From: Kiritimatiellia bacterium | Lineage (GTDB): Bacteria > Verrucomicrobiota > Kiritimatiellia > CAIQIC01 > Lenti-01 | NCBI GenBank assembly: GCA_017540905.1 | Contig: JAFYAC010000097.1 | Coordinates: forward strand, 8,383 to 72,382 | DNA length: 64,000 nucleotides | Direction of reading: 5' to 3' | Shown here: positions 28,368 through 55,736 of the stretch, piece after piece | Layout: each line of letters starts with the position of its first letter | How positions within the stretch are numbered: position 1 is the stretch's first letter | Notes under the pieces: generated by a model | The model's input: only the letters and a program-made list of their open reading frames with translations | Databases searched by the model: none | What the model was told of the DNA's origin: nothing | Translations under genes and position numbers: made by a program

Positions 28368-28444
28368 GCCCCGGTAGCTCAGTTGGACAGAGCGGCGGTT
28401 TCCTAAACCGCAGGTCGCAGGTTCGATCCCTGTCCGGGGTACCA
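28368..28444 (+). tRNA. tRNA-Arg (anticodon CCT), CCA encoded
   Basis: Hand-folded cloverleaf. Acceptor GCCCCGG pairs with CCGGGGT, D arm GCTC..GAGC, anticodon stem GCGGT/ACCGC with loop TTCCTAA, T arm GCAGG-TTCGATC-CCTGT, then ACCA. Confidence 0.9.
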
Positions 28445-38437: not shown

Positions 38438-38776
38438 CTACGTGTCCAACTGGGCCAAATCAAAAACATCCATATGCTTTTCAACATATTGCAGACCAGC
38501 TTCAGTAATTTTGACAAGTGGAACCCCAGATTTATTCGTAGTCATTTCCCAAAACCACTGGCAATTCAGATAATCATCAGGATAGTGCACCAACAGTTCT
38601 GAGGTTGGAAGTGGAGCCACCTCCCCTATAGGCACTGTGCTTGTGCCTGGCCCTCCAGCTTTTCTCTGCATCGCAATCCGTGCTAATGCCTTCGCAGCTA
38701 TAGGTCTCATACCTAGTGTCTGTTCTCCCAACGCACGAAACGCCGTTTCAAATTCTTTCCAGGCCTGTGTTATCAT
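38438..38776 (-). CDS. Hypothetical 112-aa protein, last gene of the island operon
   Basis: AGGAGG lies 10 nt upstream of the ATG. It has the low-GC codon usage of its neighbours. I recognise no motif. Confidence 0.65.
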   Translation of the reverse strand: MITQAWKEFETAFRALGEQTLGMRPIAAKALARIAMQRKAGGPGTSTVPIGEVAPLPTSELLVHYPDDYLNCQWFWEMTTNKSGVPLVKITEAGLQYVEKHMDVFDLAQLDT

Positions 38777-38875: not shown

Positions 38876-40615
38876 TCACTCCACGACATACAACTCCCAC
38901 TTTGCTCGGCTAAGGCCGACGTATTTCAGTTCGTCATCCACCTTCTTCTCGTCGATGCCGAACAAAAACACGATGTCGGCATCAAGGCCCTTGAAACCTT
39001 GAACCGTGGTTTTCAGAATCCCGGTCCCCTTCTCCCATGCGGGGATGCTCTCCCAAGCGTTGGGACCGCCAACAAAGCGGACTAGATGCCCTTGGCCATC
39101 CTTCCAATTCTGATAGGTCATTATCAGATCCCATTTGGAAGTCAAAAACACAATCTGATTCATGCCGGCATGTTCTAGCACTTCGGAGAGTTTTTGGCGG
39201 ACCTCCTGGGTTGTGATGCGCTGGACGGGCAATGGGCGGGTCTCCATCGTGGCTTCATTCCAATAGGGAACAATCGTCTGGTTGTCCTCGTACTCTTGCA
39301 TGACTCCGTGGATAGTGGCGGCGTTGCGATAATTGATGTCCAGCCTCAACTCGGCAACTTCTTGCCCCGGGAACAACGCCCGCTCGTCATAATTCCAGCC
39401 CCTCTTGTTCTCATAGGAAAAGATGGTTTGCTCTGCATCCGAGAACAACACGATCTTCCGCTGTTCCTGCAAGCATGAAAGCAGGATGGATAATTCCCGC
39501 TGCGATAAATCCTGCGCCTCATCCACAAGCAATACGTCAAACCGACCGTATTGGCTAGCCAGATTGGGGAGAATTTCCTCCAGATGGTCATCCCAGGCCA
39601 CGCGGTTGTTGTGGTAATAGGCATACTCGGATTCCCGCCCGAACTTGGTTTGAATGCGGTCGAAATTGGTGATGGCCAAATGATTCCGCCCCGGAAAAGT
39701 CCCAATCTTGCGGTCCAGTTTTTCGGCCAAAGCGCGGTTGAAGCACACATACAGGACATCTTTGCCCAGTTGTGCGTATCGTTTGGCCAAAGCGATTGCG
39801 ATGATGCTCTTGCCTGTCCCGGCCGCTCCCTTGACATGGCAACAGTCGTTGCACAACAAACGCTGAAACACAATCTGTTGCGGTTGCGTCAGCATCTGTT
39901 CGGAAATCTGATCCCATTTCAGGAACTGCATGTTGATTGCCGCAGGAGTCTCGAACCTGCTCAATTTTTGTACAACCTGGCTCCTGTAGTTTCCAGTGAA
40001 ATACACTGGATTGCTTGGAGAATACTTCAGTCTTTTCGTCAGAATATGCTCTTCTAGTTGTCGTGCAAACGCAATAGAGGTTTCCTTGTTCGCATAGGCG
40101 CCAAACAAGGAAAAAGCTGCCCCGCGTTCTGTATCGCGTGCCACAATCGGAGTGAGGGCAAAAAGAATCAAATAGGAGTAGCTGCCCCACCGCTCTCCAT
40201 CGGATATTTCCGACAACATGTATCTATTGATGTCTTTAGACGCACTGCTGGCCTTCCCGTAAATGTCAACAGCCTTGGCACCTCTTCCCTGAACCTCATT
40301 TTGAGCCCCCCCTTTTTGGGGATCGCCCAACCATATTTTTCCATCGTATTCGAAGTAATTCCCCCCTTTGGCATCTATGTTGATAATACCCACGTTTGGG
40401 ATGACCACCAAAAAATCAAGCTGGTGTTCCGGTAAGTTGACATCATCGAAATGGGCATCGTAAAACACATCCCAATCACTAGGCATGTAATCCCGAAAGA
40501 ATTTGTAGACGGCCTGTTCACCGGCCCATCCCGGCTTTTTGTCTGGTCCCTTGGAAGGAATCAGATTCTCCAATTCGATGTCGGTTGCGCAATAAGGATG
40601 CATTCTGCTGCTCAT
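38876..40615 (-). CDS. NERD-domain nuclease fused to an SF1 (UvrD/AAA_19-like) helicase
   Basis: 579 aa. The N-terminus GEQAVYKFF..(32 aa)..EHQLDFLVVIPNVGIINIDAKGG fits the NERD pattern. Helicase motifs are GAAGTGKS (Walker A), LLVDEAQDL, and C-terminal VGLSRAKWELYVV. The start codon overlaps the upstream stop (ATGA at 40612-40615). Confidence 0.85.
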   Translation of the reverse strand: MSSRMHPYCATDIELENLIPSKGPDKKPGWAGEQAVYKFFRDYMPSDWDVFYDAHFDDVNLPEHQLDFLVVIPNVGIINIDAKGGNYFEYDGKIWLGDPQKGGAQNEVQGRGAKAVDIYGKASSASKDINRYMLSEISDGERWGSYSYLILFALTPIVARDTERGAAFSLFGAYANKETSIAFARQLEEHILTKRLKYSPSNPVYFTGNYRSQVVQKLSRFETPAAINMQFLKWDQISEQMLTQPQQIVFQRLLCNDCCHVKGAAGTGKSIIAIALAKRYAQLGKDVLYVCFNRALAEKLDRKIGTFPGRNHLAITNFDRIQTKFGRESEYAYYHNNRVAWDDHLEEILPNLASQYGRFDVLLVDEAQDLSQRELSILLSCLQEQRKIVLFSDAEQTIFSYENKRGWNYDERALFPGQEVAELRLDINYRNAATIHGVMQEYEDNQTIVPYWNEATMETRPLPVQRITTQEVRQKLSEVLEHAGMNQIVFLTSKWDLIMTYQNWKDGQGHLVRFVGGPNAWESIPAWEKGTGILKTTVQGFKGLDADIVFLFGIDEKKVDDELKYVGLSRAKWELYVVE

Positions 40616-43600
40616 TTCCGTCTCCTGGCTTTTTCTTTTGCAACGACCTGTGAGCGAAGAGCACCATGCTTAGCCTCGCTCCAGCGGGCAATCTCTGTTC
40701 CATCGGCCAACCAATATCGGAAGCCCTCCACCGGCCTCCACCCTGGCTGGCTGGAATCGACAGGTTCTTTTTCGATTTCTTCATTCTGGAGCTCTTCCGC
40801 CTCCCGCAATGTGTTGATAACGGTTGTCGGTAAATGCCCGCCTCCGCCCAGCAACTTCTCCAATACCTTCAGGCCGTCAAACCGGTCGAGCTTCCCATGC
40901 TCTCTTTGGTTGTCGAAGGTTCGCAAGCACTCCCGGCATGAAGCCACATGTCTTTGGTCTGAGTTCACCTTTACTGTATCCACAGGTTCCCGAGAGGGAT
41001 TGACGCCCTCCTCTCCGCACCTGCATCCGCGCAACAATGCCAAGGCGGCATCGACAATCGCTCGGATGCGGGCAGACCATTGACGGCCATCCTCATCACG
41101 TACACTCGGCAGCAAATCCAGCACACACCCGCTTCCGCCCCCTGTGTCCGCGTCGAAAAACACGAACCAGAAACTTTCCTGCCCTTGGTTTTGATATGCT
41201 TGCAAGAGGCACCCCACATCCCGCTCGTTGACCTTCAAGGTCTTGGCAATCCCCCTCCTCAACGCATACATGGCGGACAAATGCGCGTTTGAAATGCGTT
41301 GCGGACTCCAATTGGGAAATTCAGCGGTCGATGCCCAGAATCCCGGAATCCAGATTGCAACGTTCGTCGGCGATTCATAGAGGTAGAACAATCCGCCAAA
41401 CCCGTGGAAGTCGCTCCCGGGGTTCACGTAATGGATGGCCCGTTCGGACGGCTCGCAAATGGAGAACCCCAGCCCCGGGACTGGATGGCGGCCCTCCTGA
41501 GGAATGTCCCCCGACCATGACACCAAACGCTGTCCGCGCGGTTCAAAGTCAGTGGGGGGATTGGTAGTGCTCGAATCGGCCAGGAACAGCTCGGGCCATG
41601 CAAATCCATGGGGTGTCAGTGCTCCTTGGCAGCACGGACAACGGCCACCACTGGGCTTCTGCAAGAACACTTTCTTGCACGTCCCGCAATATGGCAATGG
41701 TGTTCCCTGCGCATCCGCCGTTCTTGCCGCATCTCCGGGGCGGAACATGTAAACTTTCGCAGCGCGCGACCGGAACCGCAACTTGTTTGCGTACACGCTC
41801 TGCCCCGGCGCATACTCGAAAATGCCAAGGTGGGCTGGCCGGGCCAATTTGACTCCGTGGGCCTGCTGGTCATCCTTGTCGGGTTTCAGCTCCAGGGTAT
41901 CCACCGGGAATCCGTAGCGTGGCAGAACGCACGCTTCGCTGAGTGCGTCGATGGTTTGTACTTCAAGCAGTTTTCGCTGGGAAAGCGAGAGCGGCATACC
42001 GTCTCGAAGTTGTCCGTTCGTATCCGTTATGGGCTGGTTCACCGCATCGCTCCGGGTGCTGCCGTCAGCCAGCAGGTTGATTTTCCATTCCAGACGTTCT
42101 TTCAGGCAGTGCCAGCGTTTCCACTGGTTTTCTTGCAATTGGTTTTTTCCCACGACTTCGGGCATGTGGCATCCGCCTAGATCACGGCAAAATTCGTACC
42201 CTTCCCGGCCGTGCAAATGCGGGAATCCTTCCAACCCAATCACCTGGAAAACCACATCATCGACTGCGGAATAGCTTCCCCCCGTGATGTTCGCGAGAAA
42301 GTCCGCACTGTAACCACGCACTCCCGCGATGACGTATTCCACGATGTCCTTGCGCTCCGTCGCCCACCTCCCCAACCAATCACAGCATGTTGCGGAAATG
42401 CTCCGCGCAACAGCCTGTCCCTGCTCGTTCCTCCCCGCCTGCCAGCCAACCAAGAAATGCGACACCTTCTTCCATTTTCTTGCCGCCTCCTTTTCAGCTT
42501 GGTCATCCGAATTTCTCTTTTGCGCGATGAATTGTAGGAAGTCATGCAATGCCTCTGCACGGAAGTGCCGGGCCGCAAACTGTGGCCGCTCCAAATACAA
42601 CCGTGGTGGTTCGATCTCCCCGAAGAAGAGCATCTGGGGATTCTTGAAACACTCGCTGTCATAGAACGACTGGCTCCCGCACAACGTCAGGATGTATGGT
42701 TCCGCCCCTGGCCGGCGCCCCGCACGCCCTGCACGTTGCCGGTAGTTTGCCACTTGAGGAGGCATGTTTCCGAGAAACACGTTGTTCAGGCTTCCCACGT
42801 CGATTCCCATCTCGAATGTTGTCGAGCAGGACAGGATGTTGATCTGGCCTGATGAAAACTCCCGTTGGAATATCGCCCCCAACCTCGAATCAATCTGCGC
42901 GGTGTGCTCTTGGATCACGAAGGGTATCGTCCCCGAGAGTTGCACGCCCTGTTCTCCGATTTCAACTATCAGGTCTTCGCAAAGGGAGGAAGAATCCGCA
43001 CCTTGTTGTCCATCGGTTTGTCCAAAACGGAAAACATACCCGTCCCCAAGTTCTACAAGGATACCCGTTCCATCAGTGAAGAGGGAGAAAATGCTCTGCC
43101 GAAGGTTCCCCTCAGCCGTCTCGTGGTCGCCCAAGCCACAACTGTTCAGACATCTGTGCACCATCCCGCTGAGCCGGTGATTGGCTCGCGTATTTGTGGG
43201 GGCGATGTCGCTCCGCATCACCTTTTTCGGTTCGTAACGATAGAACCAGGATTGCAAGTCTCGGTCCTCGTCTTGTCTTACTTCTGCGCCAAAGAAAATC
43301 TTTCCCTTTTGTAAGAGGTAGCCATAAATCTCTTGCAGAAGGGATTTCATTGCCTCGTCGGGAACCCCGTCAAATGGAGGTTGGAACAAGTCATCGTAGT
43401 ACGTATTTTCTCTCGTCAGCTCATCAAGGATTTTCGACTTGATTCGAATACGTTTGCTCGGGAGCAGCCCGACACGACGGTTTCCTGCCAATAATGCCTT
43501 CAGCACAAGGAACTTCGCGGCAAGCAATTTGTCCAGCAACACGTGTTGGCTGGAACCAGTGCCTTGTCTATTCCGCGTCTGCCTCCCCGTATTGAAAGGT

Positions 43601-46557
43601 TGTTGCTCCCCGCGCTCCAAGGAGAGAATCCGCTCGGCATGGGCCTCCCTCGCCAACTCCTCCAGAGCATTTCCACGTTCCAAGGTCTGCACAAGGTCTT
43701 GGACGGCAGGCAGGCGATAGCCTCCAAACCCTGACGACTTTCCTTGTTGGAGTGCCGCGATTATCCCAATCAATTCCTGGGTGATTCTGATTTTCTGTCC
43801 ATTAAGAATGGCCACCTCGTATGGGGCCGTGTTGAACCCCTTGCAGAGTTTTACCACCAAATCGTCGCAATACTCCGCTTGGATGGTTCGATCGAAATCG
43901 AACGCAAGCCCCGCAGCCCCCCCACGGCTGTCGGCAAAAGCAAGCACCTTTCTCCCCTCGCCTGGGGACTGCCGCCTGATTTCGGGATCTTGTTCTGGCG
44001 GGGCGACATGGGCAAATGCCTCCAGTGCCTTGATTTTGAACTGGGTTCCCGTCGCTTCGTAAGGAGTGATGATGCCGTATCGGGCGGTTGCTCCCGCCCC
44101 ACCTCCGCAGGCCGTGCAATGTGGCAGGAAGTTCTCTTGTTTCTCCTTGTGAGGAATCATCCAGTAGATTGTCGTTCCGCCATTGTGGGGGGCAACGCTC
44201 CCGTCAATCAGATTGATTTGCAAGTTCTGGATGGCTTTCTCGGCATCGCCATCTTCATCCCGTTCCGCCCCGCCGAGAGTGAAAGCGTGGAGATGGGTGA
44301 ATCTCCCGATTGGATTCCGGACAAACTGGAAATTATGATGCATGTCATGCTCGGACTGCTTCAGCCCGTTGGTATAACCCAAAAGGTACGGTTGCCCGCA
44401 CCTCCGGCACACTCCCAGCGTATAAATCTGTTCGCCCGTCTCGGCTTTTTCCGCCTCGCTGTGGACAAAATGTGGGCGGGTTGCATCTCCCCCCTCGAAA
44501 TACACACCTACCCCGGAAATATCACGCATCACCTGATGGAAGCGAACGTCAATTAATGGCCGACGTTCGCCGTGGGCCACGGCCAAGCCCCCGAGGGATA
44601 CGAGACGGGCCAAGTGTGGCGGCCCCTTCAGACCTGCTGCTTGTGCCAACTGGCTCAAAGGCAGGTGGTCGCCAGCATGGGCGAAAAAGCGGGCTACATC
44701 ACCACGCCCAGCCATCGCGTTGTAAATCAATTCGTGGTAGTTGTCCCCACTCACCCCTGGCAATGCGGCCTGCCACGCTTCGTTCAGTTCCTTTTCCTCC
44801 TGGTCGAGCTCCACCCCTCGTTCGGCATGTCGGCGTATTGTCTCGCTCCACTCGTTCAAGACGTCCCCGGCAACGTGAATCGCGATGCTTTGAAGATTTC
44901 GGGGTCCATCACTCTCCATTCGGATTTCAGGTTCGAGCAAGGTTTCAATGGCCCGGTAGAGGTAATCCAAGGTTTCCCTGTGTATGCTTTGCAGGGTTCG
45001 CCCATCCGCCAAGGCTTTCCACACATCCATCAGGCTCAACCGGTTGCCCCTCGCGTTGCCGCCGTCGTTCGCTTTCTCGCTTCCGCGCCCATCCAACTCA
45101 TCGTGGAGGACGTCCCGATAATCGCGAAAGTCCGTCGAATAGGTCCGCATCAATCGGCACAGCCAGCGAACTTCTTCCGTCACGAGAATTTGCTTCCCCT
45201 CGACAGGCTGTCCATTCACCCACACCTCTGGATGCCGTTGTCCCCAGAAAGCATCGTCCAACCCAACGATTTCCCCAAGCGAGGCTGCGCCTCCGGCATC
45301 GATGATGCGTTGCAACACGGTCAGGCTTTGCTTCTGGCTTTGATGCTCGCGCCGTTTCGCTTCGTATTCGATGGTCCGGGAATACAGACTTGCGGGTTTT
45401 CCCTCCTTGTTTTCGTCTTCCTGAAATTCTGGCCGGAGGAAGAAATCAGGCTCGGCATCCACAACCGTTTCATCCCTGGCCGCGATTTCCTCGATTTGAC
45501 CCGAAGTGATGTAGAAGGATTCAGCTTCGGCCGGAAACAAGGAAGATGCAAACTCTCGGATTTTCCTGTCCGCGTCCTCTCCGGTCGAAAGCGTGGCGGA
45601 TGTCGCCAAGAACCGTATTTCGTGATCATCTCTCCGCAAACGGTTTTCCAGGCGCCGGAGCAACCAGGCAATCTCCGTCCCTGCGGTTCCCGTATAGGAG
45701 TGGGCCTCATCCAACACGATGAAATCCCAGGGGTCGTCAAACATCCGCGAATCCGGCAACAGCAACAACCTCTCCAGCATCGCGTAGTTCGTCACCAGAA
45801 TGTCCGCCCCGCCTCCTTTCCATTGTGAGCGGTAGCGGAACTCGGTTGGCAGGAAATCCCCATCGAAGGCCCTCTCTTCATCCAACGTCGCCGGACAACC
45901 ATCTCCACCCTCCATGAAGCTGCCCCACAAGCGCTGGAATTCGTCTTTGTCTTTGAGCGTCTCTTCCTTGTAATCCGTTTCGCTCGTATAACGTCCGAAC
46001 GTCACCGCCCCGCACCCCGTCGGCAAATACCGAATCAGCTTGCGCAAACGTCGGAGCTGGTCATTCACCAATGCGTTCATCGGATAGAGAATCAGGGCAC
46101 GGACATGCTTGTGGTAGGCACTCCCCTCTTTCTTCCGTTCCTTCACGATGGCATTGATAATGGGCAACAGGAAGCATTCCGTTTTGCCGCTACCCGTTCC
46201 GGTGCTCACCACCAGATTCTCCCCGGCGGCGACATGCCGGAGCGATTCCAGCTGGTGTGCGTACAGTCGGACCTGCGCAGGGTCCGCATTTGGGTCATCC
46301 AACAGATACCGTGCAAACGCAGTTGCGACTTCCGGCTCCAAATCGCCGCTATCCTTCAAATCGGCCAATGTTTCGCGGGCAGCCCTGTATGCCGTGGCCA
46401 ACTCAAGATAGGGCTCCTTGATGAAATCCAGTTCTTCGCGCTGGAATCGGCCAAACGCCTCCGCAATCGACGGTTTTGCCGCCTTCACGGGCATTGCCCG
46501 GTCAAGATACGTCAAGAGACGGTCTTTGATTTGCTGGGTCGAGGTTTCGATTTTCAT
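40612..46557 (-). CDS. Giant SF2 DEAH helicase with a Cys-rich DUF1998-type C-terminal domain (DruE-like)
   Basis: 1981 aa. Motifs are STGTGSGKT (about 46180-46206), DEAH (45700-45711), SAT, and helicase-C ILSCSTTFEMGIDVG..YRQRAGRAGRR. The C-terminus has CGTCKK..CPCCQG and CRCGEEG..CRECL clusters. The start overlaps the upstream stop (ATGA at 46554-46557). Confidence 0.85.
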   Translation of the reverse strand: MKIETSTQQIKDRLLTYLDRAMPVKAAKPSIAEAFGRFQREELDFIKEPYLELATAYRAARETLADLKDSGDLEPEVATAFARYLLDDPNADPAQVRLYAHQLESLRHVAAGENLVVSTGTGSGKTECFLLPIINAIVKERKKEGSAYHKHVRALILYPMNALVNDQLRRLRKLIRYLPTGCGAVTFGRYTSETDYKEETLKDKDEFQRLWGSFMEGGDGCPATLDEERAFDGDFLPTEFRYRSQWKGGGADILVTNYAMLERLLLLPDSRMFDDPWDFIVLDEAHSYTGTAGTEIAWLLRRLENRLRRDDHEIRFLATSATLSTGEDADRKIREFASSLFPAEAESFYITSGQIEEIAARDETVVDAEPDFFLRPEFQEDENKEGKPASLYSRTIEYEAKRREHQSQKQSLTVLQRIIDAGGAASLGEIVGLDDAFWGQRHPEVWVNGQPVEGKQILVTEEVRWLCRLMRTYSTDFRDYRDVLHDELDGRGSEKANDGGNARGNRLSLMDVWKALADGRTLQSIHRETLDYLYRAIETLLEPEIRMESDGPRNLQSIAIHVAGDVLNEWSETIRRHAERGVELDQEEKELNEAWQAALPGVSGDNYHELIYNAMAGRGDVARFFAHAGDHLPLSQLAQAAGLKGPPHLARLVSLGGLAVAHGERRPLIDVRFHQVMRDISGVGVYFEGGDATRPHFVHSEAEKAETGEQIYTLGVCRRCGQPYLLGYTNGLKQSEHDMHHNFQFVRNPIGRFTHLHAFTLGGAERDEDGDAEKAIQNLQINLIDGSVAPHNGGTTIYWMIPHKEKQENFLPHCTACGGGAGATARYGIITPYEATGTQFKIKALEAFAHVAPPEQDPEIRRQSPGEGRKVLAFADSRGGAAGLAFDFDRTIQAEYCDDLVVKLCKGFNTAPYEVAILNGQKIRITQELIGIIAALQQGKSSGFGGYRLPAVQDLVQTLERGNALEELAREAHAERILSLERGEQQPFNTGRQTRNRQGTGSSQHVLLDKLLAAKFLVLKALLAGNRRVGLLPSKRIRIKSKILDELTRENTYYDDLFQPPFDGVPDEAMKSLLQEIYGYLLQKGKIFFGAEVRQDEDRDLQSWFYRYEPKKVMRSDIAPTNTRANHRLSGMVHRCLNSCGLGDHETAEGNLRQSIFSLFTDGTGILVELGDGYVFRFGQTDGQQGADSSSLCEDLIVEIGEQGVQLSGTIPFVIQEHTAQIDSRLGAIFQREFSSGQINILSCSTTFEMGIDVGSLNNVFLGNMPPQVANYRQRAGRAGRRPGAEPYILTLCGSQSFYDSECFKNPQMLFFGEIEPPRLYLERPQFAARHFRAEALHDFLQFIAQKRNSDDQAEKEAARKWKKVSHFLVGWQAGRNEQGQAVARSISATCCDWLGRWATERKDIVEYVIAGVRGYSADFLANITGGSYSAVDDVVFQVIGLEGFPHLHGREGYEFCRDLGGCHMPEVVGKNQLQENQWKRWHCLKERLEWKINLLADGSTRSDAVNQPITDTNGQLRDGMPLSLSQRKLLEVQTIDALSEACVLPRYGFPVDTLELKPDKDDQQAHGVKLARPAHLGIFEYAPGQSVYANKLRFRSRAAKVYMFRPGDAARTADAQGTPLPYCGTCKKVFLQKPSGGRCPCCQGALTPHGFAWPELFLADSSTTNPPTDFEPRGQRLVSWSGDIPQEGRHPVPGLGFSICEPSERAIHYVNPGSDFHGFGGLFYLYESPTNVAIWIPGFWASTAEFPNWSPQRISNAHLSAMYALRRGIAKTLKVNERDVGCLLQAYQNQGQESFWFVFFDADTGGGSGCVLDLLPSVRDEDGRQWSARIRAIVDAALALLRGCRCGEEGVNPSREPVDTVKVNSDQRHVASCRECLRTFDNQREHGKLDRFDGLKVLEKLLGGGGHLPTTVINTLREAEELQNEEIEKEPVDSSQPGWRPVEGFRYWLADGTEIARWSEAKHGALRSQVVAKEKARRRK

Positions 46558-49500
46558 CTTACTTCACTCATGTTGTTTGAGCTTGAGTCATGGGTTCTTT
46601 TGCACATCCAGCAACAGGCGCCAAATTCCCGGCGCAAGTCCCTATGCTGCACAACTGTCTCGAAAAGGTGTTCCAGAATCAACCCGCTTTGCCCGGTCAA
46701 GCGGAGGGTGGGATGCAGAAAGCGCAGATACCGGACCGCCGCCAGGCAAAAGACCCATTCCGTGTCAGTTGTCCACTTAGCCACCATCCGCTGCATCCGG
46801 TTGGAAGCCGACCAGAGTTCAAGTTGGGCCAAGAATGCCTCTTTGAGTTGTATGAGCGGACTGTTTTCGATTGCAACAGAAGACAGAATTGACGACGGCG
46901 ATGGGCAAGGGCCTTGCAGGAGACGGCCCACCTCGCCGTGCAATGTCGCCGCATTCATGCACCTCAACTGATCGTCGTTGGCCTGAAAAACCTTTTCACC
47001 GGCAAAAATCTCCTTGTCCATCATCCGGTTCTTTATTTGCGGCAATCTCAAGCACATTTCACAAACACCGGCATAAGATTTGAATCTGGTCTGCAAATCA
47101 GGTGTGTCCTGAAACCTGGCAACAATCTGTCTCAATAGTTGCATGGTTTCGACGGATGGACTCGCACCATGCGCCCGGGCACATACCATTGCCGCCAAAC
47201 AGAATACCCATTCCCGGTCAGAGGGCACTCCATACGGTACCTTCGGACTCCTGCCGTTGGTAGCCTGCGACATCGTTTCCAACAAGTCTGCCAACAGCTC
47301 GAATCCCGGATGATTGCCAGAATCAAGGGATTGCCGTAACAATTCGATGGGGGTGGGGTGCGTGTTGTCGGGGAAGACAAGGGGCTTCTCGCCTTGTTCC
47401 AAAGTGAGTTCACGGACACTGATGTTGTTGTCCAAATGCTCATCATGTACTATCCGCCTCACCAGATCCTGGTAGTGGCAATCTTCAAGATTTCGCGTTC
47501 CCGGGAGTGCCCATCGCAGGAAAATCCCCAATCGTTCCCCAGACTCTATCACCTTGAAATATGCCGCCCTGTGATTCTCCAACAGCGTGCGGACATCCTT
47601 TCTGATCCTGTCCCGACGCCCTCTGTAGCCGAGCCCCCGCAAGCGGGCATCAAATTGTTCCTCCCTTTGATTGGCATCCGCATCCCACCACCAACGGACA
47701 AATTCCAGCCAATAAAAGAGTTCCACGGAACGCTCTTGTATTGCCGGTGGCAAAGGTGGAAACCGCAAAAAACCATCCTTGACCATCTCCTGCAATCCCC
47801 ACGCCACGCCTTCCAAAACCGGTTGGAAACCACTGGCCAACCATGTCCTGAAGAGCTCCATCCATGAGGAAACTTGCGTACAAACCTGGGTTTGGCACAA
47901 GGATTCAACAGTATTTTTCCACCCGGCGCGTATTTCTTCTGATGTGGCCGTTTGGGGAGTGGTGAAAATGTGCATTCTCCGAACGGGGTGTTCCGTGGCA
48001 GTCAACTGGAAGCCCACGGCTTTCAGTGTTGGCAGGACAGGCATCATTTCGGCGGGATAAATCGGAACGGCACTCTGTGAATCCTGGCGGAGAAGGCAAC
48101 ATGCAGGATCACAACCCAAGGCAGCATAGAAAAGTTGAGTCACACCTTCCATGTGGGGGAACGCAGATAGGACGGCGTCATATCCGTTCGTGCGTTTGCA
48201 AAAGTCTTGCCATGCAGAATCAATATCAAGGAATCGAATCCCCGGGCGGGTTTCCCCCAGCTTTGTTCCCGTTAGCAACAAGTCGGGTGATTGGTCCGAA
48301 AAAACATATATCTCGTATATGCTCTGTTCGCTTTCAGGCACGTACAACCCAAGATGTCCTTTGAGATCCAGACAGAAGGTGGCGTTGCCGGGACCGCGTT
48401 GAAGGTAGCGGAAAAACGTAATGCCTTGGTGTTGCCATTCGCGGACTTCGGCATTGGGCGTGTATCGGTACCCTTTCCCCGCTTCGGTCAGTTTTCGCAA
48501 GTTGCCCCGCCAATACCCTTCTTCCGATAGATACCAAGTGCGGTTGTCCCCAGCCGGTGAACCACAGTGGGCGGGAAGGCACAGATACAAGTATTTCAGG
48601 GATTCATCGTCGATTGCAGGAGCATTGCCTTTTGTGAAAACGGATTGGCCCTTGAAGTCCTTCAATCCATTCTTTTCGTGGTAATTCTGCTGGCCGAGCT
48701 CAAACCACCAATATGGACTGTCACCGGCAATGGGTTCTCGTATGTCGAGAGGCGCATCGCCTTGGTGAACCAAATGGATTCTCCGTTTTCCGTCGATCCA
48801 GTCCGGGATGGCCGTGGGGGCTACCACCTCCGTGGCCGTCCAATTGGCTGGGCATGGCGACCCCGAAAGCAACCCTCGGCGGACCCCATCCGGCAACACA
48901 ATTCCCGAGACGGCCGCCCCTGTGGTGTCAGATTTGATCATACCCCCATCGTTATCGCGGCAGGAAATGCGAAGGTGATGCAATGTATGGTCTTTGAAAT
49001 CAACTTGCGGGAAGGCATCACGGAGCAACACGTTCAAATCGTTGCCGAGGCCGTTCCACACGGACTGGCCGTCCAAGGTAAAATTCCAGTTGTACCCCTG
49101 GTGCGGTCTGGCATTGTCCACACGCAATCGCAAAGCTTGTCCTGGAAACACCACGATTCGGTTGTCGGAAGGCAATGTTTCAACCTGATCGGGATTCCCT
49201 TCGATGCAGATGGTCGGAATTGCCCCGAGAATGGTGATGGTGCCAAATTCTTCACCCTTGTACAAAAACTTCAGCGGGACATCTTCATTGGGAGGGCGCC
49301 GGGTGATACGGTAAACTCGTATCGGATGGTTCTCAACCTCACCGTCGTCTTGTCTGCCTTCAAAACGCTGTTGTAATTCCTCGTGGACAACTGCCATTTC
49401 CAATGCGGGATTGTCGCAACACCAGCCAAGGTCTTGCAAGCTGCCCTCGTCCCGGGCACAAATCAGGATGTCATGTTGGTTCCGTTTCAGTTCGGGGGGC

Positions 49501-50504
49501 GTGTTGTCGGGGTTCCACCACTTGTCGGCCTCGCGCCACCAATTGCGCCGCCGAATGTCCGTAATCCGATGCCGGAGGAAAACACCAAAGGGAATATCCC
49601 GGCGTGGAAACAATACGCTGTCTTTTCTGTTCCTTGGGTCTTCCTTCTCCTGGCTGTTGCAAGTTCCCCAACGATGCTTGCAATACTTGACTTCCACTTC
49701 GTGTTTCAGTGGCACGGGGGCAAACCAGGCGTAATCGTTTTCAATTTTCTGCCCCTTGATTCCATCGACCTCAAAACTCCGCCACTCTTGATTGGTTTGC
49801 TTGCTCGGGAAGCAATCAAATCCAACACCGAATTGGGCCACACCGTCATCAGGCAGACGCAAATACCAGTCCACCCATGCCTCAGCCCCCACACGATAGA
49901 GACAGGCATCGTGGATGGCTTCCCAAGATGGCTCGGTTGAGTGCCCACGCAAGTCTTCAGGCACTTCTCCGGTTGCCAGCCATTCCACCAGCTGGGAAAA
50001 CTCCCTTCGTTCGATTGTGTCTGTTGCCATCAAAAGACGTATCCAGGAAGACTCCTTGGCGTCTTCACCCTCCACACGGATTTCTCCATCTGCCAGAAAA
50101 CTGTGCTTGGCCTTGCGGATGCAATTCCAAATCTTTGAATGGAAACCTGTTTCTTCCGTGCGGGTATCCAAACACCAACATTTTGAGAGAAAAGAAGTCC
50201 TGTCGCAGGGCAGATAATCATGTCCCATTCGCTTCAAGGCATCACCCCAGATGTCCTGGGGGCGTTTCCCGGCTGGGAATCGTTCTGGCCAACTGCACTT
50301 GGAAAAGTCCCAACCATCCGATTTGTTGAAGAAATCAACAAACCAGACAGCCAGGCGGGCCACCGGAATGCAATCGAAATGGGGATAATCTTTGATGGCT
50401 CTGCAAGTATCTTCGTCCAATTCGAGCGCGATACGGAACAGTGACGCCCCTTGCTTAAGGCGGCTCATTATTTCAGTGTTCTTTTGGAAGACATCAATGG
50501 CCAT
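46554..50504 (-). CDS. Hypothetical 1316-aa protein, first gene of the island operon (DruH-like by position and size only)
   Basis: Uninterrupted low-GC ORF starting MAIDVFQKN. I saw no Walker, nuclease or other catalytic motif. The C-terminus has a duplicated about 54-aa module, EWVFCLAA...CxxC. Confidence 0.75.
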   Translation of the reverse strand: MAIDVFQKNTEIMSRLKQGASLFRIALELDEDTCRAIKDYPHFDCIPVARLAVWFVDFFNKSDGWDFSKCSWPERFPAGKRPQDIWGDALKRMGHDYLPCDRTSFLSKCWCLDTRTEETGFHSKIWNCIRKAKHSFLADGEIRVEGEDAKESSWIRLLMATDTIERREFSQLVEWLATGEVPEDLRGHSTEPSWEAIHDACLYRVGAEAWVDWYLRLPDDGVAQFGVGFDCFPSKQTNQEWRSFEVDGIKGQKIENDYAWFAPVPLKHEVEVKYCKHRWGTCNSQEKEDPRNRKDSVLFPRRDIPFGVFLRHRITDIRRRNWWREADKWWNPDNTPPELKRNQHDILICARDEGSLQDLGWCCDNPALEMAVVHEELQQRFEGRQDDGEVENHPIRVYRITRRPPNEDVPLKFLYKGEEFGTITILGAIPTICIEGNPDQVETLPSDNRIVVFPGQALRLRVDNARPHQGYNWNFTLDGQSVWNGLGNDLNVLLRDAFPQVDFKDHTLHHLRISCRDNDGGMIKSDTTGAAVSGIVLPDGVRRGLLSGSPCPANWTATEVVAPTAIPDWIDGKRRIHLVHQGDAPLDIREPIAGDSPYWWFELGQQNYHEKNGLKDFKGQSVFTKGNAPAIDDESLKYLYLCLPAHCGSPAGDNRTWYLSEEGYWRGNLRKLTEAGKGYRYTPNAEVREWQHQGITFFRYLQRGPGNATFCLDLKGHLGLYVPESEQSIYEIYVFSDQSPDLLLTGTKLGETRPGIRFLDIDSAWQDFCKRTNGYDAVLSAFPHMEGVTQLFYAALGCDPACCLLRQDSQSAVPIYPAEMMPVLPTLKAVGFQLTATEHPVRRMHIFTTPQTATSEEIRAGWKNTVESLCQTQVCTQVSSWMELFRTWLASGFQPVLEGVAWGLQEMVKDGFLRFPPLPPAIQERSVELFYWLEFVRWWWDADANQREEQFDARLRGLGYRGRRDRIRKDVRTLLENHRAAYFKVIESGERLGIFLRWALPGTRNLEDCHYQDLVRRIVHDEHLDNNISVRELTLEQGEKPLVFPDNTHPTPIELLRQSLDSGNHPGFELLADLLETMSQATNGRSPKVPYGVPSDREWVFCLAAMVCARAHGASPSVETMQLLRQIVARFQDTPDLQTRFKSYAGVCEMCLRLPQIKNRMMDKEIFAGEKVFQANDDQLRCMNAATLHGEVGRLLQGPCPSPSSILSSVAIENSPLIQLKEAFLAQLELWSASNRMQRMVAKWTTDTEWVFCLAAVRYLRFLHPTLRLTGQSGLILEHLFETVVQHRDLRREFGACCWMCKRTHDSSSNNMSEVR

Positions 50505-50790
50505 CGCTCATTTCTCTATTCGCATATACACCCTGTCACGAAAAGCGCGCGCCTCGTCCCCGCCTCTTTGAGAGGCCGTAGGAAGCCCATTGGCAGACGG
50601 GAAAGCGGGACGCGCGTGCGTGGAAGCGCACCAACGCGAAGCCGCCTGCCGATGAAGAAATTTCCTACGTTTCTCAAAGCAGCCACTTCTCATTCTTGCG
50701 TGAATCGGTAAGTTTTGGACGCCGCGGCCGGTCAACCGGAGACCGGGGTCTGGCGAGCACCCCCATGGATACCCCGTTGCCCGACCGTTT

Positions 50791-50959
50791 GGCGAGCCGA
50801 AACTGCGTCATCCGCGAAACCGATTTACCGCGCCCCGCGCGCCCGTTTTCCCGTACAAATCAACCCAGCATCAACCATCCTCTCGTTTCATCATTCGTTC
50901 CTTCCATCCTCTCCACTCGTCCCTCGCCCCCCGAATCTGACAACCGCCGCCCGGCAATC
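50791..50959. repeat. About 170-bp dispersed repeat, copy 1 (GGCGAGCCGAAACTGCGTCATCCGCGAAACCGATTTACCGCG...)
   Basis: Near-identical to 51288-51456 and 55013-55181 by eye. It ends in CCGAATCTGACAACCGCCGCCCGGCAATC. Confidence 0.8.
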
Positions 50960-51230
50960 CCCGAAAAAACAAACTCCGATTGGTCCGATGCCTGCGCCAA
51001 CGCTCCGGCTGACAGGAAAACAACTCGAAACAATTTGAAAACAACTCGGGACAAGGGGCCTTTCATCCTCATTGAAAAACGGGCACAAGAATGCCGAAAC
51101 ACCATTCTTGTGCCCGCCAACTGGCCCAAGGTGTTTTCTTTCTCTCTCTCCTTCTGCCTCCCTCCCGCCTTTCAATGTCCGCGAAGCGGTTTTCATGGTT
51201 TTCAATGTTGACCATCCTCCCGCACTCCAG

Positions 51231-51456
51231 CCGCCCGCAGGGCGCACCGCACTTCGTACTTCTTCCTTCTTCCTTCTTACTTTCTGCGGCGAGCCGAAAC
51301 TGCGTCATCCGCGAAACCGATTTACCGCGCCCCGCGCGCCCGCTTTCCCGTACAAATCAACCCACCATCCATCATCCTCCCGTTTCAGCATTCGTTCCTT
51401 CCATCCTCTCCACTCGTCCCCCGGCACCCGAATCTGACAACCGCCGCCCGGCAATC
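51231..51456. repeat. About 226-bp repeat unit (REP hairpin plus the 170-bp repeat), copy 2
   Basis: Collinear with 54956-55181, including the leader CCGCCCGCAGGGCGCACCGCACTTCGTACTTCTTCCTTCTTCC. Confidence 0.8.
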
Positions 51457-51775
51457 TCACGCAGAGCCGCAGAGAGGCAGAGGCGCAGAGGCTTGTCAGC
51501 ACAAAAAGGCAGAAAGGACATGTAGGAGGATCAAGACCCTTTCTTCTTCAACCCAACGTGCGCAGCGCCGTGATGGGTTGGTCTCGACCGACCCGTCACG
51601 GCGCTGCTCACACTTTGCAAGGAAAGGAAAAGAAAAGATGCATGTCCATCCTCCTTCTCCATGTACTTTTTGTCCTTTTGTGCTTTCTGTCGCCTCTCCG
51701 CGTCTCCGCGACTCCGCGTGAGCTTTTGTCTCCCCAAGCCCTCTGCGCCTCCGCCTCTCTGCGCCTCTGCGTGAG
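51456..51775. repeat. Large imperfect palindrome (37-bp-plus arms around a 17-bp-stem hairpin)
   Basis: Arm 51456-51492 (CTCACGCAGAGCCGCAGAGAGGCAGAGGCGCAGAGGC) is approximately the reverse complement of 51739-51775. The central hairpin GCAGCGCCGTGATGGGT...ACCCGTCACGGCGCTGC lies within 51558-51612. A related arm sequence is at 36534-36571. Confidence 0.65.
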
Positions 51776-51931
51776 ACCAATCAGAGTTCCTCTTGCCTCC
51801 CTTTGTCCCTGTTTGTCTTCCTTTCAAAAATTGTTTTCGGTTGTTTTCCAAGTTGTTGCGAGTTGTTTTTCCCATGCCCCCTCCAAGCCCCCGAAACGCC
51901 GGCGGAGTCCCCGGTATCTCCTGGCAAAATG

Positions 51932-52255
51932 TCAAGGCTGGGGCTGTTGGACCGGCACAACCTTCCAGACACCGTGGGCGCGGCCACCTTCCCGGACGAG
52001 GCGGCCGGAGATGGAAAGTTGTTTGATGTGGTCTGCAATCGCCCGCCGCGAGATGCCAATGCGTTTCGCCATCTGCTCCGTTGTCATGCCGCCATTTTCC
52101 GAAACAAGTTGAAGAATGGCCTCGTTGACGGGAGAGCTGGTTGTTTGTGAAGTTGTTTGTGAAGCTGTTTGTGAAGTTGTTTGTGAAGTTGTTTCCGGGT
52201 TGTGGCTTTCGACAAGGGGAATCGTCACCTTGAACTGGTCTTCTTCGTCCCGCCC
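51932..52255 (-). pseudogene. 3' remnant of an AlbA_2/HATPase_c_4-type (RecG-like) putative transcriptional regulator
   Basis: It encodes QFKVTIPL, a TTSQTTSQTASQTTSQTT low-complexity linker, and a wHTH (ILQLVSENGGMTTEQMAKRIGISRRAIADHIKQLSISGRLVREGGRAHGVWKV). This is the typical C-terminus of that family, but no N-terminal domains are present. Confidence 0.5.
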
Positions 52256-52579
52256 GCAGAGCGCTCCCCCTTTGTCCTGTTTGCCTTCTTTCCAAGAAGT
52301 TGTTTCCGTTTGTTTCCCAAGTTGTTGCGAGTTGTTTTTCCGTCCTGTTGTCCCGGGCAGTCCAAGTTGTCTCCCGGAACGTCCTCCCGCTTCCCAAGCC
52401 ACTCTGGAGCCGCCAATCGCAAACAACTCAAACAACTTGAAAAACAACTCGGGACAAGGGGCCTTTCATCCTCATCGAGAAACGGGCACAAGAATGGGAT
52501 TTCATGATTTCCGTGCCCGTATTTGGCCGCAAGACCCAAAGCGGTTTAAGAAATAATGTGGCCGCATTGGAAAGGGAGA

Positions 52580-52973
52580 CAAAACTCCGATTGGTCCGAT
52601 GCCTGCGCCAACGCTTCGGCTGACAGGAAAACAACCCGAAACAAATTGAAAGACAACTCGAAACAAATTGTCCTTCGGGCCTTCAATCGTCCCCGGATTT
52701 CTTGTCCCCGTTTGCAACCCAACGTGCCCGGCGACGGGCGCCCCATGTATGGGGCACCCGTCGCCGGACACACTTTGCGGACCAAAGAAAACAAATTTGT
52801 CCCTGTTTGTTTTCCTTTTAAAAATTGTTTTCAGTTGTTTTTCAAGTTGTCCCGAGTTGTTTTTGGGTTCTGGCTTCCGGCAAGGGGAATCGTCACCTTG
52901 AACTGGTCTTCTTCGTCCCGCCCGCAGGGGGCACCGCAAACTCGTCACTCGTCACTCGCAACTCGTCACTGCG
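52580..52973. repeat. About 400-bp composite repeat, copy B
   Basis: Collinear and highly similar to 55191-55597, with one indel of about 30 nt. It contains a 22-nt tandem (ACAAC(C/T)CGAAACAAATTGAAAG), a 22-bp-stem hairpin at 52724-52771, a GGGGAATCGTCACCTTGAACTGG gene-remnant segment and a terminal REP unit. Confidence 0.8.
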
Positions 52974-54093
52974 CTGCAGGCGCAGATTGCAAAGCCTTTC
53001 CTTTCTCCGTCAACCGGTACTTCTGCGTAGGCGAGCGCCGAGAACCGGGCTGCGTCCTTTCGACAAGTCCGAGGGCCATTGCCGGCGAAAGATATTTCTC
53101 CAGGAAATTCCGGCGTCCGCCGAGCTTCAAGGCGGCCATCATCTCCAGAACCGACATTTCACCCTTCAGCGCCTGCAAAAGACGCAGAACGAACTTGCCG
53201 GGCCCGCCGGATACTTGTTCCCCTACTTGTTCCCTTGCTTGTTCCCTTTCCGGGGGAACAAGCGGCGAAGCCCCGGCATCCAACCCGACCAGCAGGAACC
53301 GGCTTTTCAATTCGAACTCCGCGCCGCCCAGGAGGTTGGCGAAGAACCTTTCGAGATACACAAGGGTGGGATAGATTTTCTTCGGGATGTTCGAGTAATT
53401 CGCGCGGACGAGCGCATTGCGGAAGTAAAACGATTTTTCGGCGAACACCTTGTTGTCGATTCCGAATCCCAGGCTCCGCAGGTACTTGATCGCGAACACG
53501 GACGTGGTGCGGGTGTTGCCTTCCCCGAACGGATGGATCTGCCACACGTCGGCGATGAACCGAGCGAAGTGGGAAATCGTTGCGGCTTGCGACAATCCCC
53601 TGTAATCGAACTTGCGCTCCCGGCCGAACTCGTATTCGAGCGTGGCGGCAATCATGTCCGCCCCCTCGTAGCGCACGGTATCCTGCTCCAGAACCCATTC
53701 GCTTTTCGTGATGTTGTAGTCGCGGATGCGTCCGGCGTGCTTGTAGATGCCCCTGAAAAGCCGCCCGTGGATGGCAATGAACGACGCGGGGGCAAAGGAG
53801 AACGTCGGCTCCGCGAGGATTTCCGCGATGCGCTGCGCGACGATGTCCGCCTCGTCCGTGCGCGTCTTGGCGGCCACCTCCCGCACCTCCTTTACGCGGT
53901 AATACGCCCCGATCAGGCGCCCCGCCTCGGCCATCGAAATCTCGCCCTCGATGTTCCGCCGAGCCGTCTCCGCTAGATACGCGGACGTCTTCAGCCCGTC
54001 CACCTTCTGCAACCCGATGGCAGCCCCCCACAGGCCCGCCTTCTCCCGCTTGCCGGGCTCCTCCGCCCTCGAATACTCCTCGAACTCGTCCAT
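52966..54093 (-). CDS. Fic/DOC family protein with a C-terminal wHTH
   Basis: 375 aa from MDEFEEY (GGAG upstream). The Fic motif is HPFGEGNTRTTS. The C-terminal MMAALKLGGRRNFLEKYLSPAMALGLVERT segment is wHTH-like. The stop codon lies inside a REP unit. Confidence 0.85.
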   Translation of the reverse strand: MDEFEEYSRAEEPGKREKAGLWGAAIGLQKVDGLKTSAYLAETARRNIEGEISMAEAGRLIGAYYRVKEVREVAAKTRTDEADIVAQRIAEILAEPTFSFAPASFIAIHGRLFRGIYKHAGRIRDYNITKSEWVLEQDTVRYEGADMIAATLEYEFGRERKFDYRGLSQAATISHFARFIADVWQIHPFGEGNTRTTSVFAIKYLRSLGFGIDNKVFAEKSFYFRNALVRANYSNIPKKIYPTLVYLERFFANLLGGAEFELKSRFLLVGLDAGASPLVPPEREQAREQVGEQVSGGPGKFVLRLLQALKGEMSVLEMMAALKLGGRRNFLEKYLSPAMALGLVERTQPGSRRSPTQKYRLTEKGKALQSAPAAQ

Positions 54094-54197
54094 CTCGTGC
54101 TCCGCATCGTTTTGCCGTCGCAACCCTACCTTCTCCTCCCACCCCCCGCCAGCCCAAAATGCCTCCTGCCGCCCACCCTCTTTCCTCGCCTGTCGGT

Positions 54198-54292
54198 GCG
54201 TGGGCGGCCCGCCCCCCTCCTTCAATTCTCGGCCCGCAGGGCCCACTGCAAACTCGTCACTCGCAACTCGTCACTGCGCCCGCAGGGCGCTC
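54198..54292. repeat. REP-like hairpin array
   Basis: GGGCGGCCCGCCC ... GGCCCGCAGGGCC ... CAAACTCGTCACTCGCAACTCGTCACTGCGCCCGCAGGGCGC. Confidence 0.65.
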
Positions 54293-54862
54293 TCCAACGC
54301 CCTCCCCGGCGCCATGGCCCTCAACCGGCACGACCATGATGCCGTCCCGCAGGAACCGCTCGTTTCCCCGGTAGAGCAGCACGGGGGACGCCTCGGGATA
54401 ATCTTCCCGGAACGCCTTCAACCCCGCGAAGTCGCGCGGATGCAGCACAGCCGCGTTCTTGACCTCGATCGCGGCGAAATCCCGCTCGCCGTACACCACG
54501 AAATCGACCTCCACGCCCGCCTTGGTCCTCCAATACCCCAGCGTCGCCCGCCCCCCGGAGTAATCGTTCCAGACCCGCAGATGCTGGAACACGAGCCCCT
54601 CGAGCGCCGCGCCGCCGATTTCGGACGGCCGGTCGAGCGGCCCCTTCGGCCGCAACGCCCGGAACACGCCGGCATCGAAAAAGTAGAACTTTTCGTGCGC
54701 CACGAGTTCCCGCCTCGCGCGCTTGGCGAAAACGGGCAACCGCGCGGCCACCAGCAAATCCTCGAGAATTTTCAGGTAGCCGTCCACCGTCGTCCGCCCG
54801 ACCTGGCATTCGCGGGCGATGGCCGAAGACACGAGTTGCGCGCTCGACCTGTCAATCAAAAA
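54257..54862 (-). pseudogene. 5'-truncated DUF4143 ATPase gene (C-terminal half only)
   Basis: The residues from SAQLVSSAIARECQVGRTTVDGYLKILEDLLV onward parallel the C-terminal half of the 34648 ATPase family. There is no Walker A/B region. The upstream sequence is repeat DNA. Confidence 0.6.
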
Positions 54863-54955
54863 CCGCCATCGCAAATGGCAAATTTCCTTCCTTTCCGCCA
54901 ATTCGATCCCCTCTCCCGCTTTCCTATCCACGCCCCCCCTCCCCCTCTGCCCGCT

Positions 54956-55181
54956 CCGCCCGCAGGGCGCACCGCACTTCGTACTTCTTCCTTCTTCCTT
55001 GTTACTTTCTGCGGCGAGCCGAAACTGCGTCATCCGCGAAACCGATTTACCGCGCCCCGCGCGCCCGCTTTCCCGTACAAATCAACCCACCATCAACCAT
55101 CCTCTCGTTTCACCATTCGTTCCTTCCATCCTCTCCACTCGTCCCCCGGCACCCGAATCTGACAACCGCGGCCCGGCAATC
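54956..55181. repeat. About 226-bp repeat unit, copy 3
   Basis: Collinear with 51231-51456. The inner 170 bp (55013-55181) also matches 50791-50959. Confidence 0.8.
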
Positions 55182-55190
55182 CCCGAAAAA

Positions 55191-55597
55191 CAAACTCCGA
55201 TTTGTCCGATGCCTGCGCCAACGCTCCGGCTGACAGGAAAACAACTCGAAACAAATTGAAAGACAACTCGGAACAAATTGCCCTTCGGGCCTTCAATCGC
55301 CCCCGGATTTCTTGTCCCCGTTTGCAACCCAACGTGCCCGGCGACGGGCGCCCCATGTATGGGGCACCCGTCGCCGGACACACTTTGCAGACCAAAGAAA
55401 ACAAATTTGTCCTTGTTTGTCTTCCTTTCAAAAATTGTTTTCAGTTGTTTTCCAAGTTGTTCCGAGTTGTTTGAAAACAGATTTGTTTTGTTCGGCCGTT
55501 TCCGGGTTGTGGCTTCCGGCAAGGGGAATCGTCACCTTGAACTGGCCTTCTTCGTCCCGCCCGCAGGGCGCACCGCAAACTCGTCTCTCGTCACTCG
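55191..55597. repeat. About 400-bp composite repeat, copy C
   Basis: See copy B. The hairpin GTGCCCGGCGACGGGCGCCCCA-TGTA-TGGGGCACCCGTCGCCGGACAC lies at 55334-55381. Confidence 0.8.
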
Positions 55598-55736
55598 TAA
55601 CTGCGTGGCACTTGTCTCCGCGCGCCCGAAGGCGCGCCACCGCAAACTCGTTTCTCGTCGCCCGTCACTCGTCTCTGCGCGCCCTCTGGGCGCGCAAGAG
55701 GCGCCACCGCTTCTTGTCACTTGTCACTTTTCACTT
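55554..55736. repeat. REP-like hairpin array
   Basis: Contains GCGCCC-GCA-GGGCGC, GCGCGCC-CGAA-GGCGCGC and GCGCGCCC-TCT-GGGCGCGC hairpins with ACTCGT(C/T)TCTCGTC spacers. Confidence 0.7.

Follow-up and report, generated by a model that had tools for sequence, protein, structure and literature searches.

The window analyzed here is a 64,000-nucleotide stretch of contig JAFYAC010000097.1 from a Kiritimatiellia bacterium (positions 8,383 to 72,382 of the forward strand), and it carries an operon of three genes. The lead gene of this operon encodes a 1316 amino acid protein from a rare, unannotated family, and its product, a DruE-like helicase and a NERD nuclease-helicase are encoded together as a conserved three-gene module. 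The best reading of this triad is an undescribed Druantia-like variant. Within it the lead protein is best read, from position and predicted architecture, as a multidomain sensor/adaptor with no enzymatic activity or at most a weak one. We consider it moderately probable that it represents a DruH-type sensor or DNA-end-binding partner, with the nuclease being supplied in trans by the NERD and superfamily 1 (SF1) helicase. The three genes are listed below.

46554..50504, minus strand: lead gene, encoding the 1316 amino acid protein (MBR4190386.1), member of a rare unannotated family preceding a DruE-like helicase
40612..46557, minus strand: DruE-like helicase of superfamily 2 (SF2), YprA family, 1981 amino acids (MBR4190385.1); its start overlaps the stop of the lead gene (ATGA)
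38876..40615, minus strand: NERD and SF1/UvrD-like helicase, 579 amino acids (MBR4190384.1); its start overlaps the stop of the DruE-like helicase (ATGA)

Both junctions of the operon consist of a four-base ATGA stop/start overlap, in agreement with a preliminary description, made from the DNA sequence and its translated open reading frames (ORFs), which had placed the lead gene at the head of a tightly coupled operon. The same order, from the lead gene through a DruE-like helicase (1937-2065 amino acids) to a NERD/SF1 helicase (545-634 amino acids), was present in every readable locus, and the lead gene was found directly before and co-oriented with the helicase gene in eight independent loci. 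The loci comprised the window together with L003 and L004 as well as L002, L005, L006, L008, L009 (with the third gene split in two) and L010; L001 ends after the helicase start. This synteny persisted at lead protein identities of 15-16% and among unrelated flanking genes. The lead gene, the DruE-like helicase and the NERD/SF1 helicase form a conserved three-gene module, and no description of a triad of DruE and a NERD-helicase was found in the searchable literature. Identities for the lead protein and the helicase, respectively, were 29 and 48% in L005, 18 and 36% in L009, and 15 and 32% in L010, the lead protein diverging faster than its own helicase.

The family is small. Searching for homologues by indexed words, whether from the single sequence or from a five-sequence profile, retrieved only five relatives among 5.8 billion clusters, and an exhaustive hidden Markov model search of 1.84 billion representatives returned 54 matches, about 30 of which were full-length (1100-1270 amino acids), with a length mode for the family of 1100-1180 amino acids. 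None of the full-length relatives carried a Pfam, NCBIfam or PADLOC annotation, and no relatives were detected when the GTDB species representatives were scanned with the helicase and the lead subfamily alignment (pattern [RS]EW[LIV]FC[LAI]AA).

The second gene encodes a DruE-like helicase of the YprA family. Motifs I, II and VI of the 1981 amino acid helicase are intact (Walker A GTGSGKT at 120, DEAH at 283 and QRAGRAGR at 1274) and an MZB/DUF1998 domain is located at about 1763-1878. The protein matched the PADLOC models DruE1 (E 5e-125) and DruE3 (E 1e-116) as well as the Pfam families DEAD, Helicase_C and MZB, a precomputed Pfam match to YjiV_N is on record, and among solved structures it is closest to the DruE-like helicase chains 9tu7 and 9wae. 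Only about 100 amino acids follow the last CxxC of the MZB domain, compared to about 400 in DruE of Escherichia coli, and the helicase therefore lacks the C-terminal PLD nuclease domains that type III-A DruE possesses; an HxK motif is not conserved. The 579 amino acid protein combines the NERD PD-(D/E)xK residues (D67...D81-A-K83) with a Walker A motif (GTGKS at 266) and DEAQD at 365, and matched the PADLOC models RTasNERD-Hel, 'NERD+UvrD' (C3a187), AbiO, Nhi and GajB with E-values of 1e-26 to 1e-12. Since the D...(D/E)xK residues are kept in seven of the seven third-gene orthologues examined, this NERD and SF1 helicase is the likely nuclease effector of the module.

The 1316 amino acid start of the lead gene is backed by the alignment of its N-terminus with those of the homologues from residue 1. 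The long ORF, the paired EWVFCLAA octapeptide, the two CxxC pairs and the richness in Trp and Cys (3.3 and 2.8%, respectively) noted in the preliminary description were all recovered from the sequence. No Walker A, DExD/H or PLD-pair motif was detected by a motif scan, the protein contains no transmembrane segment (the top 19-residue Kyte-Doolittle hydropathy was 1.25) and no signal peptide or hydrophobic leader, and it had no match in Pfam, PADLOC (E up to 10) or NCBIfam. The earlier statement that catalytic and transmembrane signatures are lacking was upheld by these scans, and no similarity to a known enzyme family over most of the length was found. Residues conserved throughout the family are chiefly W, G, P and L and form no catalytic constellation, while the polar class-conserved positions are E168, D230, R311, R403, D737, D776 and E898. 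The thioester motif C.EQ is absent as well.

Two AlphaFold2 models were calculated. The first one, derived from 5 sequences with a pLDDT (predicted local distance difference test) of 56, served only for the secondary structure of the N-terminal domain. The second, derived from 28 sequences, covered amino acids 205-1316 with a mean pLDDT of 79.5 and a predicted template modelling score (pTM) of 0.48. Together they suggest a protein of three parts.

49890..50504, minus strand: N-terminal alpha-helical domain, amino acids 1-205 (first model, low to medium confidence)
48060..49889, minus strand: about six beta-sandwich (Ig/Fn3/MG-like) domains, amino acids 206-815 (second model, pLDDT mostly 80-95)
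47025..48035, minus strand: C-terminal alpha-helical domain, amino acids 824-1160 (pLDDT about 65-90), the usual protein end in most family members

The entire region 824-1316 was helical in the second model. Family-conserved residues of the N-terminal domain include S21, G64, W110 and G120, and the beta array features the motifs NWWRE (322-323) and WWFE (599-602). According to per-domain identity the most variable domain of the array spans amino acids 436-525, and the region 436-552 was matched repeatedly by several repeat proteins in the exhaustive profile search. Foldseek returned only generic tandem beta-sandwich matches for both models. The top matches in the PDB were tandem MG/Ig/Fn3 arrays (complement C3b, C5, alpha-2-macroglobulins and CD45; E about 1e-6), and those among viral models were tail fibre, tail and tip attachment protein J with Ig/Fn3 arrays, while a PDB sequence search with the lead family profiles gave nothing or sub-threshold Ig domains only. 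As the lead protein has neither the thioester motif nor a signal peptide, the MG/Ig matches show its fold class and not family membership. The suggestion in the preliminary description that this protein would be structurally novel was not supported, because the predicted folds (helical domains and an Ig/Fn3-like array) are ordinary and their predicted layout resembles that published for DruH.

DruH (YjiT / STY4851-ECs_5259 family, Druantia type III) is encoded directly upstream of druE, has no annotated domains, is reportedly more divergent than DruE (PMC13192584), and in its published layout has about six Ig-like beta-sandwiches between one helical domain at the N-terminus and another at the C-terminus. 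The lead protein resembles it in being encoded directly upstream of and co-directional with a DruE-type helicase, in its length of about 1100 amino acids (the mode of the lead family), in having no annotated catalytic domain and in diverging faster than the helicase. It may also share the three-part layout, as the predicted secondary structure and the fold-class matches agree with it at a pTM of 0.48. It differs from DruH by a C-terminal extension of 150 amino acids with a duplicated terminal module, and its operon by the presence of a third gene. In recent work DruH is regarded as the partner of the DruE helicase that senses, binds ssDNA (single-stranded DNA) or processes DNA ends. Since the lead protein corresponds to it in position, size and predicted architecture, the best guess is still a role as sensor or specificity subunit, as already put forward in the preliminary description; the faster divergence compared to the helicase is likewise as reported for DruH.

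Several observations weigh against the assignment as a DruH-type partner. E. coli DruH (from L007), included as a positive control, scored 1264 bits on the NCBIfam model YjiT_fam (NF038336) and matched 11 PADLOC DruH models. YjiT_fam gave nothing at E<=1 on six lead family members, and the 11 PADLOC DruH models (DruH3, PDLC00038-50) had no match on 28 lead members. The Pfam families PF27205 and PF27201, which are carried by DruH relatives, were absent from the precomputed Pfam data for P0001-P0005 and for the lead genes at all loci. Alignment of 28 lead with 24 DruH sequences by hhalign resulted in a probability of 0.2%, and domain-wise hhalign scores remained within the column-shuffled null, with the score being reached by 56 of 60 shuffles for the N-domain, 20 of 60 for the beta array and 18 of 60 for the C-domain. 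Reciprocal hmmsearch between the lead family and DruH yielded no more than 0.4 bits, and the lead family profile missed the PDB DruH structure 9tud. On the structural side, Foldseek TM-scores were about 0.1, so that domain type and order match with no global superposition; the pTM of 0.48 leaves the inter-domain arrangement uncertain; and no DruH structure was among the top 50 Foldseek matches, the presence of 9tud in the library being unconfirmed. Groups disagree on what DruH itself does: its descriptions include an ATP-competed binder of ssDNA without nuclease activity for E. coli DruH (10.64898/2026.05.12.722862), a Mg-dependent 3'-5' exonuclease that prepares junctions for DruE for PaDruH (Loeff et al., 10.64898/2026.05.13.724313), a phage-protein sensor with dimer-dependent nicking (PMC13192584) and a scaffold (10.64898/2026.05.13.724758). 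The ssDNA/ATP nucleobase pocket of E. coli DruH lies where Ig5 meets the C-terminal domain and involves R1031, Y733, Y670, N672, H1062, R1064 and K1067. As judged by sequence comparison, membership of the lead protein in the YjiT/DruH family cannot be demonstrated, though the protein looks like DruH in architecture. Three collinear hhalign segments between lead and DruH (30-73/43-97, 513-549/523-553 and 878-896/966-984) were considered as well and rejected, as they were no better than the column-shuffled controls.

If the lead protein acts as a DruH-type partner, we infer by analogy with Druantia III a defence function, a sensing role, a coupling to the helicase and the following order of events. 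The lead protein would recognize an infection cue, which could be ssDNA or DNA ends that are exposed, or else a late phage protein bound by its variable Ig-like domains, and would then license or position the DruE-like 3'-5' helicase on phage DNA. DNA degradation would be carried out by the NERD and SF1 helicase, which is always co-encoded and to which this step is assigned because the DruE-like helicases of this clade do not carry a nuclease domain themselves.

The C-terminal extension of the lead protein contains the duplication that the preliminary description had singled out as a duplicated EWVFCLAA...CxxC module.

47010..47225, minus strand: module 1, amino acids 1094-1165, predicted three-helix unit with PTDREWxFCxAA and CEMC (1148-1151)
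46581..46772, minus strand: module 2, amino acids 1245-1308, lineage-specific duplicate of module 1 with the octapeptide and CWMC (1298-1301)

The two EWVFCLAA copies (amino acids 1098-1105, window 47190-47213, and amino acids 1249-1256, window 46737-46760) are identical in 19 of 24 bases at the DNA level. An exact repeat of eight residues occurred in none of 2000 shuffles of the lead protein, and its internal repeat reached a local alignment score of 54 compared to a mean of 22.9 and a maximum of 49 in shuffles; the repeat exceeds chance. In the second model the helices of module 1 span 1096-1111, 1118-1131 and 1135-1165 and those of module 2 span 1245-1263, 1272-1286 and 1288-1308, while the linker between them (1166-1244) is partly of low model confidence. 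Among the ten members of the close subfamily, P1094, E1098, W1099 and A1105 of module 1 are invariant and T1095, D1096, F1101, C1102, A1104 and C1148 nearly so. Module 1 is the normal C-terminus in this subfamily, with most members ending within a few residues after it, and a recognizable second module was found only in the window protein and the homologue P0002, in addition to a degenerate trace in the extension of P0003. A module-1 profile built from ten homologues scored 23.6 bits on the extension of the window protein and 22.2 bits on that of P0002, with 3.9 bits being the best of 900 shuffles. Module 2 is, by these profile scores, a true and lineage-specific duplication, which predates the split of the window protein and P0002 (now 32-34% identical), and the tail is read as a recent tandem duplication of the terminal three-helix unit of the family. 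This unit probably serves packing or partner contact. Conservation of the duplicated module was not supported by the homologue alignment, in which most members end after module 1 and the four cysteines are not conserved, an outcome that the preliminary description had itself named as refuting; the duplication is a minor, lineage-specific one of the tail.

The cysteines of these modules could be read, following the emphasis on them in the preliminary description, as a four-Cys metal site central to regulation or specificity, an explanation that we regard as highly improbable. Both CxxC pairs, the only ones in the lead protein, are equidistant from their octapeptide, C1102 and C1148 hardly vary within the close subfamily, and Zn2+ raised the ssDNA binding of E. 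coli DruH (10.64898/2026.05.12.722862). However, C1151 was found only in the window protein, the second module of P0002 has no CxxC, most relatives have no module 2 at all, and the register of the two pairs differs between pairwise and profile alignments. Both pairs lie within the last long and continuous predicted helix of their own module (1135-1165 and 1288-1308) and not in turns or knuckles. A zinc-knuckle reading is unsupported because the pairs are not conserved among homologues and reside inside predicted helices; the metal site is, from the alignment, already largely refuted, and the CxxC pairs are incidental. Even less weight can be given to the lead protein being a surface or phage-derived structural protein that merely adjoins the helicase. 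Adhesins and tail proteins typically carry Ig-like arrays, and the viral Foldseek matches include tip attachment protein J and tail fibres, but the absence of a signal peptide or transmembrane segment, the four-base overlap with the helicase gene, the invariant synteny in eight loci with otherwise unrelated flanks and the low Foldseek TM-scores all argue against it. It is also unlikely, though less so, that the lead protein has enzymatic activity of its own and processes DNA ends to load the helicase, for example as a nickase or 3'-5' exonuclease whose active site in the helical N-domain has gone unrecognized. This possibility draws on the exonuclease activity of PaDruH (10.64898/2026.05.13.724313), the dimer-dependent nicking by DruH (PMC13192584) and the few class-conserved acidic and basic positions of the lead family listed above. 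These residues are, however, scattered over several domains with no cluster in the N-domain, no known nuclease motif or family match was found in the lead protein, another group saw no nuclease activity of DruH (10.64898/2026.05.12.722862), and a canonical NERD nuclease, its residues intact, is already present in the operon.

More serious is the alternative that the triad constitutes an independent defence system and no variant of Druantia, in which the helicase would belong to a separate clade of the ARMADA-Druantia branch and the lead protein would have been recruited independently as an Ig-array sensor that merely converges on the DruH layout; we hold this to be possible but still rather doubtful. 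On all four PADLOC DruE types the helicase of the window obtained partial and about equal scores of 300-417 bits, whereas E. coli DruE scores 2695 bits on its own type, and it aligns to E. coli DruE in the core motifs only. The lack of sequence similarity between the lead protein and DruH, the third conserved gene that Druantia III does not have, and the unrelated partners (about 900-1070 amino acids, without DruH model match) of other DruE-like helicases also fit a separate system. It is opposed by gene position, length (mode 1100-1180 amino acids) and predicted three-part architecture, all as in DruH, and by the YjiV_N match on record for the helicase. With the same reserve, the lead family may be no relative of DruH and the triad a distinct unnamed defence system, that is, a fifth Druantia-like type. 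If so, phage DNA unwound by a nuclease-less YprA helicase would be passed on to a second helicase that bears the nuclease, with a hypervariable sensor in control.

Other partners of DruE-like helicases were encountered on two plasmids. On the Clostridium butyricum plasmid pNPD4_2 (L012 5666-13551) a 1559 amino acid DruE-like helicase is preceded by a hypothetical protein of 1069 amino acids, and on a Pseudanabaena plasmid (L013 5232-15108) a 2082 amino acid DruE-like helicase is preceded by hypothetical proteins of 898 and 310 amino acids. The partners from C. butyricum and Pseudanabaena matched none of the PADLOC DruH models, and the 1069 amino acid partner from C. butyricum had no match to the lead family. 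By these profile searches the slot upstream of DruE appears to hold several mutually unrecognizable partner families.

The triad differs in base composition from its surroundings, with a GC content of 0.51-0.56 compared to about 0.70 elsewhere in the window. Upstream of the operon a Fic gene and a DUF4143 fragment are located, and it is followed by a transposase gene.

36717-38078, minus strand: insertion sequence-type transposase (DUF772 + DDE_Tnp_1), directly downstream of the operon and in the same place in the metagenome contigs L003 and L004

A tRNA-Arg(CCT) gene (28368-28444, plus strand) is positioned at the edge of a region (30000-55000) in which GC content drops stepwise from about 0.70 through 0.62-0.65 to 0.51-0.56. 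The operon could be part of a tRNA-associated island here; an integrase was not identified. Repeated non-coding segments (50734-55669; pieces of 226, 281, 105, 81 and 67 nucleotides, 77-97% identical and in up to four copies) sit between the operon upstream region and the Fic/DUF4143 genes and look like a dispersed intergenic repeat or an element resembling a miniature inverted-repeat transposable element. Further to the left, a 953 amino acid ORF (15714-18575, minus strand) encodes a PrimPol-type primase-polymerase (NCBIfam PrimPol_Msp, E 3e-29) together with an XPB-like helicase region, a combination that points to a mobile-element or defence relation of the left part of the window as well. 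At the other loci, an AbiEi/AbiEii toxin-antitoxin pair was observed directly downstream of the triad in L002 (21152-22520, the P0005 locus), and AAA/STAND-type ATPases upstream of it in L002 and L005; both are consistent with a defence-island context. A small ORF of 84-112 amino acids follows the third gene in the window (38438-38776, minus strand), L002 (20837-21091), L005 (20212-20523), L006 (11855-12178), L008 (11734-12063) and L010 (12686-12991). Pairwise comparison of those from the window, L002, L005 and L006 revealed no similarity, and since it is not conserved among these loci the small ORF is probably not a fourth component.

Druantia systems are widespread, their mechanism began to be resolved only in 2026, and the role of DruH is contested. 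A partner family with the same predicted layout and unrelated sequence offers a natural comparison for DruH-type proteins, one that could separate architecture from sequence-specific chemistry. A helicase without its own nuclease that is combined with a separate NERD-helicase could show how the nuclease module is exchanged. The triad also exposes a detection gap: the lead protein escapes PADLOC, NCBIfam and Pfam alike, so that the operon would register as no more than an orphan DruE.

Among known systems, Druantia type III shares with the operon the YprA-family SF2 helicase with MZB/DUF1998, but consists of two genes (druH and druE), whereas the operon described here has a conserved third gene for a NERD and SF1 helicase. 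Druantia III-B, a two-gene system of DruH and a compact DruE without PLD domains (PMC12458937; 10.64898/2026.05.13.724758), resembles it further in that the helicase has its MZB near the C-terminus and no PLD nuclease domains and is accompanied by one large upstream partner. In contrast to III-B, all loci have the third NERD and SF1 gene, the helicase with its 1937-2065 amino acids is not a compact one and the partner is not seen by DruH models. With complement C3 and alpha-2-macroglobulin, the best Foldseek matches, the lead protein shares a run of about six consecutive Fn3/Ig-like beta-sandwiches; with TM-scores of about 0.1 and without the thioester motif (C.EQ) or a secretion signal, this is a likeness in fold class only. 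TALON also has a NERD nuclease, but its TPR-CSD and TBP genes are absent from the operon. In ARMADA type II, too, a YprA-helicase system is extended by an SF1 (GajB-like) helicase carrying a toxin or nuclease domain, but BrxHII and PglX, the genes by which ARMADA is defined, are missing from the operon; no ARMADA was found beside the E. coli Druantia III locus, which is the yjiT-yjiV/mcrBC region. The Nhi-like and NERD-UvrD nuclease-helicases (Nhi, C3a187, RTasNERD-Hel and AbiO) have the same NERD PD-(D/E)xK and SF1 architecture as the third gene, which, unlike these, is coupled here to a DruE-like helicase and the lead protein.

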